A stretch of DNA of 5,281 bases from a virus (IMGVR_UViG_2663763286_000020:1-5281), one strand, 5' to 3'. Shown: positions 1-5,281, counted from the stretch's first letter. A program made the numbers and translations. The notes: generated by a model not told the origin, from the sequence alone.

Positions 1-3
1 CTG

Positions 4-807
4 GTGGTTGTTCAGAATCAGTCTGATGAAATTCCCGTTCTGGAATGGCAGGGAGTGCGTGTAGTGACAACTAAGATCCTTGCTAAGGGGTATGGGACAG
101 ATGCGGATAACATCAAGAAGAACTTTTCCCGTAATGCTGAACGTTTTTGTGAAGGCAAGCATTTCTATAAAGTTATTGGAGATGATTTGAACAATTTGCG
201 GGTGACTTTAAGTAACTCACAAAATCCTATCTCTCCTAAAGCCCGCTCACTCATCCTCTGGACGGAACGCGGCGCAGCCCGCCACGCTAAAATGCTCGAA
301 ACCGATCAGGCATGGGCATTCTTTGAAAAACTGGAAGACAGCTACTTCCGGCAAAAAGAACAGCAACCGGTTGCAATCCCCCAGACGCTTCCAGAAGCTC
401 TGCGCCTGGCTGCCGAACTGGCTGAACAAAAGCAGCTTCTGGAACAGAAAGCCCACCAGCTAAATCAGCAGCTGGTGGCCGCCGCTCCTAAAGTCGATTT
501 TGCCGACCGGGTATCAGTAGCTAAAGGGATCCTGATTGGGAATTTTGCAAAGGTTGTTGGACTTAAGCAAAACGCGCTGTTTGTCTGGTTACGGGAGAAC
601 GGCATCCTGATAGCGTCCGGTGGACGTAAAAATGTGCCGTTCCAGCAGTACATCAACGCGGGGTATTTCACGGTGAAAGAAGTGGTGCTGGATGATGAAG
701 ATGGCTACCAGATACGGTTGACGCCTCAATTAACGGGTAAAGGCCAGCAGTGGTTGACGCGTAAACTGCTCGATGCTGGCTTGTTAAAACCGGTGGCGGC
801 TGAATAA
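4..807 (+). CDS. Antirepressor-family protein, left paralog: N-terminal ORF6N/KilA-N-like module plus C-terminal KilAC-like antirepressor domain. The frame is open from base 1, so the start may be GTG at 4 or lie upstream of the window.
   Basis: 267-codon ORF ending TAA 805-807. N-terminal motifs (LAKGYGTD..NIKKNFSRNAERFCEGKHFYKV..LWTERGAARHAKML..AWAFFEKLEDSYF) and C-terminal motifs (LPEALRLAAE..KGILIGNFAKVVGL..GILIASGGRKNVPFQQYINAGYFTVKEV) fit that architecture by recall, not by a database hit. Bases 1-3 are CTG where the right-hand paralog has ATG. Confidence 0.8.
   Translation: MVVQNQSDEIPVLEWQGVRVVTTKILAKGYGTDADNIKKNFSRNAERFCEGKHFYKVIGDDLNNLRVTLSNSQNPISPKARSLILWTERGAARHAKMLETDQAWAFFEKLEDSYFRQKEQQPVAIPQTLPEALRLAAELAEQKQLLEQKAHQLNQQLVAAAPKVDFADRVSVAKGILIGNFAKVVGLKQNALFVWLRENGILIASGGRKNVPFQQYINAGYFTVKEVVLDDEDGYQIRLTPQLTGKGQQWLTRKLLDAGLLKPVAAE
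256..807. repeat. Left arm of a long inverted repeat (3' about 550 bp of the antirepressor-like gene); partner is about 4478-5029.
   Basis: Spot comparison of segments 241-540 with the reverse complement of 4741-5050 shows 0-4 substitutions per 60 nt (about 95-97% identity), mostly synonymous. Boundaries are approximate; no full alignment was computed. Confidence 0.8.
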
Positions 808-814
808 TGGAAGA

Positions 815-836
815 ATGCCCGGTTGATGCCGGGCAT
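815..836. terminator. Candidate bidirectional intrinsic terminator between the convergent antirepressor-like gene and c1.
   Basis: Perfect hairpin ATGCCCGG-ttgatg-CCGGGCAT (8-bp GC-rich stem, 6-nt loop), 8 nt after the TAA of the plus ORF and 3 nt before the c1 stop. It is followed by AATTTATT on the plus strand; the U-tract is only moderate in both directions. Confidence 0.5.
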
Positions 837-1758: not shown

Positions 1759-1802
1759 ATTATAGAAGGATCCAACGAAAATAATAGATTTATTAGTGCA
1801 TT
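1759..1802 (-). promoter_or_regulatory. Candidate c1-proximal promoter with a C1 operator-like site at the -35 position.
   Basis: A perfect TATAAT on the minus strand (complement of 1759-1764). 22 bp upstream, at 1786-1802, the minus-strand sequence AATGCACTAATAAATCT matches 14/17 of the P1 C1 operator consensus ATTGCTCTAATAAATTT. The site overlaps the coi stop codon. Confidence 0.45.
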
Positions 1803-2011
1803 TATTGTGAGTCTGGCTGGTTAGTGGCCATGAGATATTCGATTGTGTCAGTGAGATCATCCAGGTCGTCTTGGGTGATGCGGTACTCCTGATTGGATAT
1901 CTTTGAGTAGTGTTCAGCAATGGCGCGGGCAGCGTCGGTTTCGGCGGGGTCTACAGATAAAGCGTTAGAGCAATGTCTAACGTCGTCGATGGTTGGTGGA
2001 ATGAAAGCCAT
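1802..2011 (-). CDS. coi: Coi-like C1 inactivator, a small acidic protein co-oriented with and upstream of c1.
   Basis: 69-aa ORF MAFIPPTIDDVRHCSNALSVDPAETDAARAIAEHYSK... in the position and of the size of P1 coi. ATG at 2009-2011 (complement). Assigned by synteny and size; the sequence was not verified against a database. Confidence 0.8.
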   Translation of the reverse strand: MAFIPPTIDDVRHCSNALSVDPAETDAARAIAEHYSKISNQEYRITQDDLDDLTDTIEYLMATNQPDSQ

Positions 2012-2245
2012 AATTATGCCTCACTGTATTGACAACACAGAGCCTGAAGCTCTGACCTACTGTTTCACCCATGATCCATGCTGGGGTAATCTAACAACAT
2101 TGCGCTGTGTGTAAGATGAGCAATGCATAGCTGTAATGCCGTTGTATAAGGTTTCCCTGTTTGCTCATTTCCTTCTGAGCCGCTCTACAACGCTGAAGAC
2201 ACATTAAATAGTGAATCCAAAGTCGTATTACGAAACGGCGGCAAA

Positions 2246-2272
2246 ACTATAATTTATTAGAGCAATTGTCAA
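2246..2272 (-). promoter_or_regulatory. Minus-strand promoter for the coi-c1 operon with an overlapping C1 operator (the P99a/Op99a-type arrangement of P1).
   Basis: On the minus strand, a -35 TTGACA (complement of 2267-2272) is followed directly by ATTGCTCTAATAAATTA (complement of 2250-2266), a 16/17 match to the C1 operator consensus. A -10-like TATAGT (complement of 2246-2251) follows with 15-nt spacing. Confidence 0.65.
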
Positions 2273-2332
2273 ACAACTATGAAAAACAATCCAGTTTTTG
2301 GCTGGTGGAGTGGGATTTTTCTCTCAAAATTT

Positions 2333-2349
2333 ATTGCTCTAATAATTCT
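2333..2349 (+). promoter_or_regulatory. C1 operator-like site in plus orientation, about 45 bp from loxP.
   Basis: ATTGCTCTAATAATTCT matches 15/17 of the consensus ATTGCTCTAATAAATTT, with the first 13 positions perfect. Confidence 0.6.
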
Positions 2350-2392
2350 TGATTTTTATGCGTAGCTGGACGTAAACTCCTCTTCAGACCTA

Positions 2393-2426
2393 ATAACTTC
2401 GTATAGCATACATTATACGAAGTTAT
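2393..2426. other. loxP: loxP site-specific recombination site (Cre target).
   Basis: ATAACTTCGTATA-GCATACAT-TATACGAAGTTAT: perfect 13-bp inverted repeats around the asymmetric 8-bp spacer. This is an exact match to wild-type loxP (spacer reads ATGTATGC on the other strand). Confidence 0.97.
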
Positions 2427-2498
2427 CTTAAGGGTTATTGAACATGATTAATTTACCTGTAAATCCATACAGTTCAATACCTTATCAGGTCAAATAGT

Positions 2499-2518
2499 GA
2501 TCACTTGATCATTTGATC
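2499..2518 (+). promoter_or_regulatory. Dam-methylation (GATC) cluster in the cre upstream promoter region.
   Basis: Three GATC sites at 2499-2502, 2507-2510 and 2515-2518 (8-bp spacing) inside palindromic TGATCA/TTGATCAA units, with TTGATC hexamers resembling a -35 element. P1 cre is known to have an upstream promoter whose -35 region carries Dam sites. Confidence 0.6.
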
Positions 2519-2523
2519 AAGGT

Positions 2524-2584
2524 TGCGCTACGTAAAATCTGCGAAATGTTGGCAGTGTTAGTGCTCCAGATTTCGCGTAGCGCA
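2524..2584. repeat. Long imperfect inverted repeat between the GATC cluster and the small ORF upstream of cre.
   Basis: TGCGCTACG (2524-2532) pairs with CGTAGCGCA (2576-2584), and AAATCTG (2535-2541) pairs with CAGATTT (2567-2573), with a 2-nt internal mismatch and a 25-nt loop. No U-tract follows. Confidence 0.5.
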
Positions 2585-2615
2585 CTTACCACCACCAATC
2601 AATCAGAGGTGAAAA

Positions 2616-2837
2616 ATGGGATATTCAGCTGCTAAAGTGTCCACTCATATTGAGCTTGAGAAAAACCGTGGTTACTGGCGGGCAAAAGGGTTTGATCGTG
2701 ATAGTTGTCAACTGTCATTATCGCGCGGTGAAGAGAAAATAGAACGCACGCGCGGTCGCTGGCGTTTCTATGACGAGAACCATAAACAGGTAAAGGCAGA
2801 GCCGATCCTGTACACTTTACTTAAAACCATTATCTGA
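2616..2837 (+). CDS. Small basic hypothetical protein (73 aa) immediately upstream of cre, probably co-transcribed with it.
   Basis: ATG at 2616 is preceded by a good SD AGAGGTGA. The product is R/K-rich (MGYSAAKVSTHIELEKNRGYWRAKGFDRD...). Stop TGA 2835-2837 lies 7 nt before the cre ATG. Function not recognised. Confidence 0.5.
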   Translation: MGYSAAKVSTHIELEKNRGYWRAKGFDRDSCQLSLSRGEEKIERTRGRWRFYDENHKQVKAEPILYTLLKTII

Positions 2838-2844
2838 GTGTTAA

Positions 2845-3876
2845 ATGTCCAATTTACTGACCGTACACCAAAATTTGCCTGCATTACCGGTCGATGCAAC
2901 GAGTGATGAGGTTCGCAAGAACCTGATGGACATGTTCAGGGATCGCCAGGCGTTTTCTGAGCATACCTGGAAAATGCTTCTGTCCGTTTGCCGGTCGTGG
3001 GCGGCATGGTGCAAGTTGAATAACCGGAAGTGGTTTCCCGCAGAACCTGAAGATGTTCGCGATTATCTTCTATATCTTCAGGCGCGCGGTCTGGCAGTGA
3101 AAACTATCCAGCAACATTTGGGCCAGCTAAATATGCTTCATCGTCGGTCCGGTCTGCCACGACCAAGTGACAGCAATGCTGTTTCACTGGTCATGCGACG
3201 GATCCGAAAAGAAAACGTTGATGCCGGTGAGCGTGCAAAACAGGCGCTGGCGTTCGAACGCACTGATTTCGACCAGGTTCGTTCACTCATGGAAAATAGC
3301 GATCGCTGCCAGGATATACGTAATCTGGCATTTCTGGGGATTGCTTATAACACCCTGTTACGTATAGCCGAAATTTCCAGGATCAGGGTTAAAGATATCT
3401 CACGTACTGACGGTGGGAGAATGTTAATCCATATTGGCAGAACGAAAACGCTGGTTAGCACCGCTGGTGTAGAGAAGGCACTTAGCCTGGGGGTAACTAA
3501 ACTGGTTGAGCGATGGATTTCTGTCTCTGGTGTAGCTGATGATCCGAATAACTACCTGTTTTGCCGCGTCAGAAAAAATGGTGTTGCCGCGCCATCATCC
3601 ACCAGCCAGCTATCAACTCGCGCCCTGGAAGGGATTTTTGAAGCAACTCACCGATTGATTTACGGGGCAAAAGATGACTCTGGTCAGCGATACCTGGCCT
3701 GGTCTGGACATAGTGCCCGTGTCGGTGCCGCGCGAGATATGGCCCGCGCCGGAGTTTCAATACCGGAGATCATGCAAGCTGGTGGCTGGACCAACGTAAA
3801 TATTGTCATGAACTACATTCGTAACCTGGATAGTGAAACAGGGGCAATGGTGCGCCTGCTGGAAGATGGCGATTAG
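2845..3876 (+). CDS. cre: Cre tyrosine site-specific recombinase (P1 type).
   Basis: 343-aa product MSNLLTVHQNLPALPVDATSDEVRKNLMDMFRDRQAFSEHTWKMLL...GWTNVNIVMNYIRNLDSETGAMVRLLEDGD recognised as P1 Cre. Its cognate loxP lies 418 bp upstream. Confidence 0.98.
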   Translation: MSNLLTVHQNLPALPVDATSDEVRKNLMDMFRDRQAFSEHTWKMLLSVCRSWAAWCKLNNRKWFPAEPEDVRDYLLYLQARGLAVKTIQQHLGQLNMLHRRSGLPRPSDSNAVSLVMRRIRKENVDAGERAKQALAFERTDFDQVRSLMENSDRCQDIRNLAFLGIAYNTLLRIAEISRIRVKDISRTDGGRMLIHIGRTKTLVSTAGVEKALSLGVTKLVERWISVSGVADDPNNYLFCRVRKNGVAAPSSTSQLSTRALEGIFEATHRLIYGAKDDSGQRYLAWSGHSARVGAARDMARAGVSIPEIMQAGGWTNVNIVMNYIRNLDSETGAMVRLLEDGD

Positions 3877-3893
3877 CCATTAACGCGTAAATT

Positions 3894-3910
3894 ATTGCTC
3901 TAATTCATTG
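3894..3910 (+). promoter_or_regulatory. C1 operator-like site between cre and the downstream small ORF (position of P1 Op2-type operators).
   Basis: ATTGCTCTAATTCATTG matches 14/17 of the consensus, with the first 11 positions perfect. Confidence 0.45.
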
Positions 3911-3926
3911 ATATTTATGGTGACAT

Positions 3927-4238
3927 ATGAGAAAGGATTTCAACATCGACGGAAAATATGTAGTGCTGTCTGTAAGCACTAATATTCAGTCGCCAGCCGT
4001 CATTGTCACTGTAAAGCTGAGCGATAGAATGCCTGATATTGACTCAATATCCGTTGCGTTCCCTGTCAAAAGTATGCGTGGTGCTGAACATTTCGTGATT
4101 AACGCCTCCGAGGAAGAAGCACGGCGCGGTTTTGCTAAAGTGATGTCTGAGTTTGGCGAATTTTTGTGGCACGTTGACAAAGCCCTCTCAATCAGTTCAG
4201 CAAGGTCCAAAGCGTTAACAGCTTCCATGATGAAATAA
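3927..4238 (+). CDS. Hypothetical 103-aa protein downstream of cre, in the position occupied by cra in P1. The sequence itself is not recognised.
   Basis: ATG 3927 with a weak SD (GGTGA, short spacing). Residue composition looks protein-like (..SEEEARRGFAKVMSEFGEFLWHVDKALS..). An operator-like site lies 17 bp upstream. Preferred over the overlapping minus-strand ORF 3986-4318, which contains a terminator hairpin. Confidence 0.5.
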   Translation: MRKDFNIDGKYVVLSVSTNIQSPAVIVTVKLSDRMPDIDSISVAFPVKSMRGAEHFVINASEEEARRGFAKVMSEFGEFLWHVDKALSISSARSKALTASMMK

Positions 4239-4262
4239 AAAAGCCTGGCAAGGAGCCAGGCT
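4233..4262 (-). terminator. Intrinsic terminator oriented for minus-strand transcripts.
   Basis: Hairpin AGCCTGG-caaggag-CCAGGCT (4242-4262). On the minus strand it is followed by TTTTTATTT (plus-strand A-tract 4233-4241). On the plus strand it sits 3 nt after the 4236-4238 stop codon but has no downstream T-tract. Confidence 0.6.
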
Positions 4263-4368
4263 GCACAAAAGAGCGGGTTTGTATTCCGCATACAATCAAT
4301 CAAGAAGGAGTATAGCACACAGGTACTGAAGAGAAAAAATGTGATTCGCGATAAATAAAATAGCCACT

Positions 4369-4412
4369 ATTGCTATAATTAATTGTTATAATTGAGTTGT
4401 GGCTTTAGTCAA
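4369..4412 (-). promoter_or_regulatory. Promoter island with a C1 operator-like site: minus-strand promoter TTGACT-16-TATAAC, plus two plus-strand TATAAT boxes.
   Basis: Minus strand: -35 TTGACT (complement of 4407-4412), 16-nt spacer, -10 TATAAC (complement of 4385-4390). ATTGCTATAATTAATTG (4369-4385) matches 14/17 of the operator consensus and overlaps the -10 and predicted start. Plus-strand TATAAT at 4374-4379 and 4387-4392. Confidence 0.45.
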
Positions 4413-4451
4413 CTACGAAGACATTGCCATTATAGACTCCGTGACATCATT

Positions 4452-4475
4452 GGCGGCCGAAAGGCCGCCTTTTTT
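4452..4475 (+). terminator. Rho-independent terminator for plus-strand transcripts, at the inner edge of the right inverted-repeat arm.
   Basis: GGCGGCC-gaaa-GGCCGCC, a perfect 7-bp GC stem with a GNRA-type tetraloop, followed by six T (4470-4475). It lies 2 nt from the stop codon of the convergent minus-strand gene. Confidence 0.8.
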
Positions 4476-4477
4476 AA

Positions 4478-5029
4478 TCATTCAGCCGCCACCGGTTTTA
4501 ACAAGCCAGCATCGAGCAGTTTACGCGTCAACCACTGTTGGCCTTTCCCCGTTAATTGAGGCGTCAGCCGTATCTGATAGCCATCTTCATCATCCAGCAC
4601 CACTTCTTTCACTGTGAAATATCCGGCGTTTATGTACTGCTGAAACGGTACATTTTTACGTCCGCCGGACGCAATCAGGATGCCGTTCTCCCGTAACCAG
4701 GCAAACAGCGCATTTTGCTTAAGTCCAACAACCTTTGCAAAATTCCCAATCAGGATCCCCTTAGCCACTGATACCCGGTCGGCAAAATCGACCTTAGGGG
4801 CGGCGGCCACCAGCTGCTGATTTAGCTGGTGGGCTTTCTGTTCCAGAAGTTGCTTTTGTTCAGCCAGCTCGGCAGCCAGGCGCAGAGCTTCGGGAAGCGT
4901 CTGAGGGATTGCGACCGGTTGCTGTTCTTTTTGCCGGAAGTAGCTGTCTTCCAGTTTTTCAAAGAATGCCCATGCCTGATCGGTTTCGATCATTTTAGCG
5001 TGGCGGGCTGCGCCGCGTTCCGTCCAGAG
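4478..5029. repeat. Right arm of the long inverted repeat (partner of about 256-807).
   Basis: Reverse complement of 4741-5050 aligns colinearly with 241-540 at high identity (see left arm). Boundary is approximate. Confidence 0.8.
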
Positions 5030-5281
5030 AGTGAGGTTTCTGGCGTTCTTACCAACAGAGTTACTAAAAGTAACTCTGTTCTTAAATTCCTTTAATTTTG
5101 AACCAGTTAAAAGAAAGTAGTGTTTACCTTCTTCAAAGCGATCGGAGTTGCAAGACAAATTTTTACGAATATTGCCTTCATCGGTTCCGTACCCCTTAGC
5201 AAGAGTTTCGGTTGTTACGACACGTACTCCCTGCCATTCCAGAACGGGAATTTCATCAGACTGATTCTGAACAACCACCAT
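4478..5281 (-). CDS. Antirepressor-family protein, right paralog (ORF6N/KilA-N-like N-terminus plus KilAC-like C-terminus), inverted relative to the left copy.
   Basis: 267-aa ORF starting with ATG at 5279-5281 (complement), exactly at the window edge, with stop TGA at 4478-4480 (complement). The C-terminal ~180 residues differ from the left copy at only 2 positions. N-terminal motifs RFEEGKHYFLLTGSKLKEFKN and LWTERGAARHAKMI are typical of this domain family. Confidence 0.85.
   Translation of the reverse strand: MVVVQNQSDEIPVLEWQGVRVVTTETLAKGYGTDEGNIRKNLSCNSDRFEEGKHYFLLTGSKLKEFKNRVTFSNSVGKNARNLTLWTERGAARHAKMIETDQAWAFFEKLEDSYFRQKEQQPVAIPQTLPEALRLAAELAEQKQLLEQKAHQLNQQLVAAAPKVDFADRVSVAKGILIGNFAKVVGLKQNALFAWLRENGILIASGGRKNVPFQQYINAGYFTVKEVVLDDEDGYQIRLTPQLTGKGQQWLTRKLLDAGLLKPVAAE

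Follow-up and report, generated by a model that had tools for sequence, protein, structure and literature searches.

Does the primary repressor C1 of a P1-like phage-plasmid act only on its own immunity region, or does it also act on the genes that lie beyond cre? This question is raised by a viral DNA stretch of 5,281 bp (IMGVR_UViG_2663763286_000020:1-5281; hereafter the window), in which an earlier reading made without database searches (the sequence-only reading) had pointed out five C1 operator-like sites, two of them downstream of cre, and had proposed C1 autoregulation together with repression of the genes and promoters beyond cre. Megablast of the window matched P1, P7, phiW39, SJ46 and relatives at 95-97% identity, and the window corresponds to the immC-loxP-cra-cre-c8 region of a P1-like phage-plasmid. 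Because its C1 differs from P1 C1.100 at only three residues (280/283 identical) and its C1 inactivator, Coi, is identical to that of P1, what is known of P1 operators is directly transferable to this element. Our overall reading, to which we assign a probability of about three in four from sequence comparisons, is that all five sites are of the asymmetric 17-bp type recognized by the element's C1: three are immC operators, one is a probable relic of the P1 operator Oref, and one is a likely, unannotated operator between cre and c8 that would act as a roadblock to c8 transcription. Sequence identity and orthology, score statistics and conservation patterns were observed directly and are reported as such below. 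For the most part, the analysis re-identifies known P1 biology, to which it adds one modest new candidate operator at c8. P1-like phage-plasmids commonly carry resistance genes in E. coli, so that accurate maps of their immunity circuits are of some practical value.

Five C1 operator-like sites in the window

Operator definitions were taken from the annotation of P1 record AF234172, from which 20 annotated C1 half-sites were extracted. When the window was searched with the C1 operator consensus ATTGCTCTAATAAATTT, allowing at most three mismatches, exactly five sites were found and no others at that match level (Table 1), with the coordinates, strands and mismatch counts that the sequence-only reading had given; in 200 dinucleotide shuffles of the window, the same search returned a mean of 0.05 matches and a maximum of 1. 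A position weight matrix (PWM) was then built from 14 of the 20 P1 operators, namely those without a homolog in the window. For Omat, the plus-strand consensus match CATGCACTAATAAATAT was used in the matrix; in AF234172, Omat (2628-2645) is annotated on the minus strand with a length of 18 nt, which appears to be a strand error of the GenBank annotation.

A PWM scan set against shuffled sequence had been named as a possible refutation of the five sites, and they withstood it: at a threshold of at least 14 bits, five sites were observed, compared with 0.0385 expected per shuffled window (2,000 dinucleotide shuffles). Per shuffled window, the highest score averaged 8.45 bits, with a 99th percentile of 15.9-17.1 bits, and the fraction of shuffled windows containing any site equal to the two weakest of the five was 0.005-0.009 (pseudocounts 0.1 to 2). 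After the five, the next-best match in the window was 1958-1974, at 9.04 bits. The five sites score 17.6-25.1 bits, and the known strong P1 operators 17.9-28.1 bits. In the P1 genome (94.8 kb), all 18 sites that score at least 17.9 bits are annotated operators, and the 11-mer ATTGCTCTAAT, expected 0.06 times, occurs 11 times, in each case within an annotated operator. The core GC(T/A)CTAAT, with C at position 7 (C7), is present in four of the five sites, including 3894-3910, and absent from 4369-4385. Of the 20 annotated P1 half-sites, 19 have C at this position, and only the very weak Oc1b does not.

The immC operators are shared with P1

By sequence and position, four of the five sites are the counterparts of the annotated P1 operators Oc1a/Op99a, Oc1d/Op99d, Oc1e/Op99e and Oref/Op2a, and by orthology they are apposed to the promoters Pc1, P1coi, P4cre and P2ref, respectively. 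C1 binding and repression at the P1 orthologs are documented by GenBank annotation and the literature (PMC4713147, PMC8546580); P1 C1 represses both P1coi and Pc1 and recognizes the operator consensus given above (PMC8546580). As had been predicted, the Oc1a site coincides with the -35 element of a c1-proximal promoter: it overlaps the Pc1 -35 on the P1 annotation, and the corresponding -10, TATAAT, occupies 1759-1764 of the minus strand. Oc1d, which had been placed between the -35 and -10 of a coi-c1 promoter, fills the 17-bp spacer of P1coi (former P99d) from end to end, next to a -35 TTGACA at 2267-2272. Oc1e abuts the -35 of P4cre, and the P1 annotation states that it 'may control expression of cra and cre'. 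Across 69 aligned distinct relatives, the minor-allele fraction was 0.002 for Oc1d and 0.013 for Oc1e.

Two further annotated P1 sites, Oc1b and Oc1c, are present and identical in the window and had been overlooked by the sequence-only reading. In the bivalent operator Oc1ab (former Op99ab), Oc1b is the weak half; because its own PWM score is -5.4 bits, it is recognizable by orthology only. Oc1c, which lies inside coi, scores 9.04 bits, a value reached by 37% of shuffled windows, and is thus not separable from chance by its score alone.

When compared with the P1 immC cluster Oc1ab/Oc1c/Oc1d/Oc1e, the half-sites of the window are identical, and their order, spacing, orientation and placement relative to promoters are alike, as are C1, Coi, and the adjoining loxP and LexA box; the two clusters present no functional difference. 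The window's element differs in having an extra C4-icd-ant module between pacB and c1. By analogy with P1, C1 on these operators would cover the Pc1 -35 and fill the P1coi spacer, switching off coi-c1 transcription, and C1 at Oc1e would adjoin the C1-sensitive cre promoter P4cre. With immC sites identical to P1 operators and a C1 that is 99% identical, the proposal that these sites are C1 operators and that C1 autoregulates is borne out; for this element, it is a rediscovery of established P1 biology. The LexA box CTGTAAATCCATACAG overlapping P2coi is also kept, at window 2457-2472, as annotated at P1 46-65; because this box is retained, the SOS input to coi is conserved in this element.

A candidate C1 operator between cre and c8

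Alone among the five, the site at 3894-3910 fails to show positional orthology to an annotated operator. The P1, P7 and phiW39 records carry no counterpart operator annotation between cre and c8. In P1 and P7, the orthologous site (P1 1485-1501) reads ATTGCTATAATTATTTG, has A at position 7 (A7), scores 15.85 bits and is unannotated; in P1, it is the second-best unannotated PWM match of the whole genome. The window's site holds the complete 11-mer core ATTGCTCTAAT, for which the expectation is 0.003 occurrences in the window; its score of 17.94 bits equals that of P1 Oref.

Conservation of the site was assessed in two samples, 34 contigs recovered through a flank-anchored pattern and 80 loci recovered by C8 similarity (84-97% amino acid identity); when the flank-anchored pattern was run on another collection of genome contigs, it gave 0 matches. 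In both samples, the site stands constantly at -33 from the c8 ATG. The ATTGCTCTAAT core was intact in 71 of the 80 loci (about 90%). Stronger variants were found in 19 of the 80, with ATTGCTCTAATTATTTG (21.8 bits) in 18 and ATTGCTCTAATTATTTT (24.7 bits) in one; the P1-type A7 allele was found in six, and an A9->G change in three. In the 69 aligned sequences, the core columns ATTGCT, T8, A10 and T11 were invariant, and the minor-allele fraction of the core was 0.009, as against 0.185 for the 17-nt spacer that separates the cre stop codon from the site. This spacer is scrambled, with no conserved column after TAGCC, and the 5' edge of conservation coincides exactly with operator position 1. Conservation of the core is comparable to that of Oc1d, Oc1e and loxP; relative to the non-coding spacer, the core, Oc1d and Oc1e show the marks of purifying selection. 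When conservation was compared with PWM information position by position, the correlation was uninformative (Spearman rho 0.04), nearly all positions being conserved.

From these sequence features, we consider a real but unannotated C1 operator, named 'Oc8' here, the most likely identity of 3894-3910, and c8 may, as a prediction, be under C1 control through it. All four cre promoters and the predicted Pc8 lie upstream of the site, whose end is 16 bp short of the c8 start codon. We infer that C1 binds there and, once bound, would form a transcriptional roadblock that uncouples c8 from cre: in a lysogen, c8 would be off and Cre would still be made, as the plasmid prophage needs cre. C1 can loop DNA between Op99 operators, and the roadblock might be aided by looping to neighbouring operators. 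From the cre-c8 site to the Oref position the distance is 475 bp (471-479 bp across contigs), a spacing that would permit cooperation wherever Oref is intact. P1 itself has operators that do not overlap a promoter: Oc1c (in coi), Orlf (about 110 bp upstream of PrlfA) and OpmgRb (downstream of PpmgR). The cre-c8 site resembles these three in lacking recognizable promoter overlap, and would likewise be a roadblock or an auxiliary operator; unlike them, it is predicted, has no curated entry, and precedes a target, c8, that is not known as C1-controlled.

Two other proposals were considered and dropped. One is a promoter overlapping the cre-c8 site: the hexamer TTGATA at 3908-3913 would serve well as a -35, but there is no -10 at a distance of 15-18 bp beyond it. 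A 'swap', in which the cre-c8 site gained C7 to offset the loss of C7 at Oref, does not fit the commonest haplotypes, which carry C7 at both sites.

The Oref homolog and the loss of ref

In P1, Oref (former Op1/Op2a) lies within P2ref, and ref is a lytic gene repressed by C1 (PMC4713147). In the window, the homologous site at 4369-4385, which had been described as overlapping promoter elements, does lie between the -35 and -10 (TATAAT, 4387-4392) of a P2ref remnant. The placement relative to -35 and -10, the CGATAAA H-NS motif before the site and the leader hairpin after it are all as in P1, whereas the core has changed to ATTGCTATAAT, with C7->A and G13->A relative to P1 Oref, and sister haplotypes decay further. 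Homology to P1 ends at the ref-leader hairpin, directly beyond which a convergent ant gene has its 3' end. BLAST comparisons with ref and ant, together with the plasmid context, revealed that ref is absent from the element and that its position is taken by a convergent antirepressor module consisting of a C1 operator, C4, icd and ant.

Among 80 related loci, the Oref C7 was kept in 63 of 63 that have ref, and the core was mutated (A7, T5 or both) in 7 of 12 loci in which ant replaces ref; in some ref-less haplotypes, the P2ref -10 was also altered to CCATAAT. We read these core mutations, from their distribution, as probable relaxed selection on an operator that lost its cargo, and relaxation without ref in turn supports functional maintenance of the intact core when ref is present. 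Oref decay thus seems to offer a clean, small example of operator erosion following replacement of a cargo gene. With ref gone, the site has no downstream gene to repress, and because C7->A falls at a near-invariant position, its binding strength is in doubt. We infer a loss of function: 4369-4385 is most probably a relic in decay, to which C1 would bind weakly or not at all and which has no protein-coding target. The proposed C1 repression beyond cre is accordingly supported in part: it is doubtful at this site, and for c8 it stands as a prediction.

Several features surround the orphaned site. The CGATAAA motif is kept upstream of it, at window 4349-4355; in P1, H-NS binds the ref regulatory region that contains this motif (PMC4713147). 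A terminator-like hairpin, AGCCTGGCTCCTTGCCAGGCT with a T-run, occurs at 4242-4262 on the minus strand, just past c8 and oriented against leftward transcription, and together with the ref-leader hairpin it isolates the Oref remnant from both neighbours. An Rfam scan of the window gave two sub-threshold small RNA (sRNA) matches spanning 4235-4484, at 22-23 bits compared with gathering thresholds of 47 and 75. Control of ref by an attenuator is suggested by the title of a 1988 paper by Windle et al., cited in PMC4713147.

Alternative readings of the two weaker sites

The sites at 3894-3910 and 4369-4385 have three mismatches each and the lowest scores of the five, and might be chance matches in AT-rich intergenic DNA, unrelated to C1. 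This is very improbable, given that just 0.5-0.9% of shuffled windows hold any equally good site, that the unannotated P1 sites all score below both, that 4369-4385 is the positional ortholog of annotated P1 Oref, and that the core of 3894-3910 is fixed while its flank diverges; orthology, the P1 scan, conservation and the shuffles have essentially refuted it already. A weightier alternative, which we still consider quite unlikely, is that the block 3894-3926 is the 5'-untranslated region (5'-UTR) or translation-initiation region of c8, or another cis element, and that the operator likeness of its first 11-17 nt is coincidental and without C1 binding. Several observations favour it and count against an operator. 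Conservation runs on from the site through the 16 nt to the c8 ATG (post-site minor-allele fraction 0.035), so the footprint may be a c8 5'-UTR or translation signal; within the site, positions 12-14 vary among loci, and position 13 is mostly C where known operators prefer A. The score lies at the bottom of the known-operator range. The reference phages P1 and P7 tolerate A7, and their richly annotated, curated records mark no operator between cre and c8. Moreover, the loci counted for conservation are close relatives of one another and do not amount to independent events. Finally, a promoter scan and manual inspection found no sigma-70-like promoter overlapping 3894-3910, the nearest being the predicted Pc8 with its -10 about 60 nt upstream, and without an overlapping promoter the repression mechanism must be assumed. 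Against the 5'-UTR explanation, the conserved block begins exactly at operator position 1; its ATTGCTCTAAT core is far too rare to be expected in the window and is found in P1 solely within annotated operators; and many relatives carry stronger versions (21.8-24.7 bits), a drift toward the C1 consensus that is hard to explain by an unrelated constraint. On balance, we lean, at slightly better than even odds, toward the fuller proposal that 3894-3910 is an unrecognized C1 operator present in about 90% of the sampled P1-like elements, that it represses c8 by blocking read-through from the cre promoters, and that it was overlooked because P1 and P7 carry a weakening C7->A change.

For 4369-4385, the alternative to a decaying relic is a C1-controlled promoter-operator that still works and that, on derepression, would yield a short leader transcript or, where transcription passes the hairpin, an RNA running antisense into ant; if true, it would add a C1-dependent layer to antirepressor control. 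The TATAAT, the leader and the hairpin are retained exactly up to the start of the ant module, the site still scores 17.6 bits, any transcript would run antisense to ant, and the operator core is intact in 5 of the 12 ant-type loci, some of which score 20-23.6 bits. It also weighs against the relic that the PWM penalizes C7->A only mildly, weakened binding being argued from the presence of C7 in 19 of 20 half-sites. However, the core (A7, T5) and -10 changes are confined to the ref-less lineage (7/12 compared with 0/63), a pattern typical of relaxed selection; between the promoter and ant stands a strong hairpin with a T-run; and Rfam offered just two weak sub-threshold sRNA matches there. We regard a working promoter-operator as unlikely, and a decaying relic as the better description.

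Were the Oc8 proposal correct, c8 regulation in the laboratory phages P1 and P7 would be atypical for the family. It makes a testable prediction, namely that in most P1-like phage-plasmids a conserved candidate C1 operator precedes c8 and is mutated in P1 and P7. The c8 gene is poorly understood and is tied by annotation to lysogeny establishment, and the site offers a handle on the timing of its expression; the C7 and A7 variants also form a natural allele pair for probing C1 operator requirements.

Gene content of the window

The features of the window are listed in Table 1. A window position equals the P1 position - 92391 to the left of lox and the P1 position + 2409 from the right of lox to the end of cre. 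In PLSDB, 745 plasmids match the window, and at least 80% of it is present in 242. C8 is identical to P1 C8 at 94 of 103 residues. Six of the nine differences fall in residues 79-86 (L79F, G81W, K82H, N84D, N85K, V86A; window 4161-4184), a small hypervariable patch in an otherwise conserved protein.

Table 1. Genes, C1 operator sites and other elements of the window (consensus match out of 17 positions; scores in bits).
Feature	Position	Strand	Sequence	Match	PWM score	Basis or remarks
ant, C-terminal 267 codons (second copy; module between pacB and c1)	4-807	+				Pfam ORF6N + KilAC
c1, primary repressor C1, 283 aa	840-1691	-				Annotated c1 / phage repressor protein C1 in matching records
Oc1b ortholog	1775-1791	+	ACGAAAATAATAGATTT		-5.4	Identical to P1 94166-94182, annotated protein_bind C1
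Oc1a / Op99a ortholog	1786-1802	-	AATGCACTAATAAATCT	14/17	23.34	Identical to P1 94177-94193; overlaps Pc1 -35
coi, C1 inactivator	1802-2011	-				69/69 aa identical to P1 Coi
Oc1c / Op99c ortholog, inside coi	1958-1974	-	ATTGCTCTAACGCTTTA		9.04	Identical to P1 94349-94365
Oc1d / Op99d ortholog	2250-2266	-	ATTGCTCTAATAAATTA	16/17	25.07	Identical to P1 94641-94657
Oc1e / Op99e ortholog	2333-2349	+	ATTGCTCTAATAATTCT	15/17	24.61	Identical to P1 94724-94740
loxP	2394-2427	+	ATAACTTCGTATAGCATACATTATACGAAGTTAT			Read directly; maps to P1 lox annotation
cra	2616-2837	+				
cre	2845-3876	+				2/343 residues differ from P1 Cre; Pfam Phage_integrase 2.8e-32
Candidate C1 operator 'Oc8'	3894-3910	+	ATTGCTCTAATTCATTG	14/17	17.94	-33 to -17 from c8 start codon
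c8, annotated putative lysogeny-establishment or lytic-regulator gene	3927-4238	+				c8 in P1, P7 and phiW39 records
Degenerate Oref / Op2a ortholog	4369-4385	+	ATTGCTATAATTAATTG (P1: ATTGCTCTAATTGATTG)	14/17	17.64	Alignment with P1 1962-1978
ref-leader hairpin + T-run	4452-4475	+	GGCGGCCGAAAGGCCGCC TTTTTT			Terminator scan; alignment with P1 2046-2069
ant, C-terminal 267 codons (Ant2-like part; module in ref place)	4478-5281	-				Pfam ORF6N + ANT/KilAC

Antirepressor modules flanking the immunity region

The closest complete plasmid, NZ_AP027182.1, is 99% identical over the window. In this plasmid, the module in the ref position comprises a perfect-consensus C1 operator, C4 target sites, the C4 antisense RNA (Rfam RF01695, 71.7 bits), icd and ant, and extends to an Omat-like operator. 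An ant insertion between pacB and c1 has been described (PMC6906374). In NZ_AP027182.1, the immC-lox-cre-c8 region lies between two complete immI-type modules that are inverted relative to each other (4139-5804 and 9475-11139 of reverse-complemented NZ_AP027182.1 49012-64289), each with a C1 operator, a C4 RNA (RF01695, 72-76 bits), icd and ant; both ends of the window (1-818 and 4467-5281) fall inside the ant genes. The ant arms form an inverted repeat (250-818 / 4467-5035, 95%). Because the arms are 95% complementary, the 3.6-kb immunity/cre segment could be flipped by homologous recombination; the sampled loci showed no inverted isomer, but only two of them were informative in containing both ant modules and the outer flank.

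NZ_AP027182.1 carries four operator-C4-icd-ant modules in all, with C4 genes at 14952-15037, 53352-53437, 59871-59958 and 86529-86614: the canonical one by kilA/repL, the two flanking immC, and one near ban/dbn. Beyond the pacB-c1 ant insertion (PMC6906374), no description of this fourfold arrangement was found in the literature looked at. A strong C1 site (22-28 bits) stands ahead of each of the four modules. Their C4 RNAs are mutually different, the pacB-c1 copy being the most divergent, and the pacB-c1 module has an isrK-like element (RF01394) instead of the a1b1 target element, which suggests several immI specificities within one element.

Outside the window, a further unannotated C1-like site, ATTGCCCTAATGTATTT (16.6 bits), was noted at P1 17166-17182 in the darB/prt divergent region. 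A much stronger C1-like site, ATTGCACTAATATATTT (23.4 bits), occurs at 45268-45284 of NZ_AP027182.1, in a gap by a gene of portal size; this region may be the counterpart of the P1 darB/prt region, and by its sequence the darB/prt-region site is a further candidate for an unrecognized operator.

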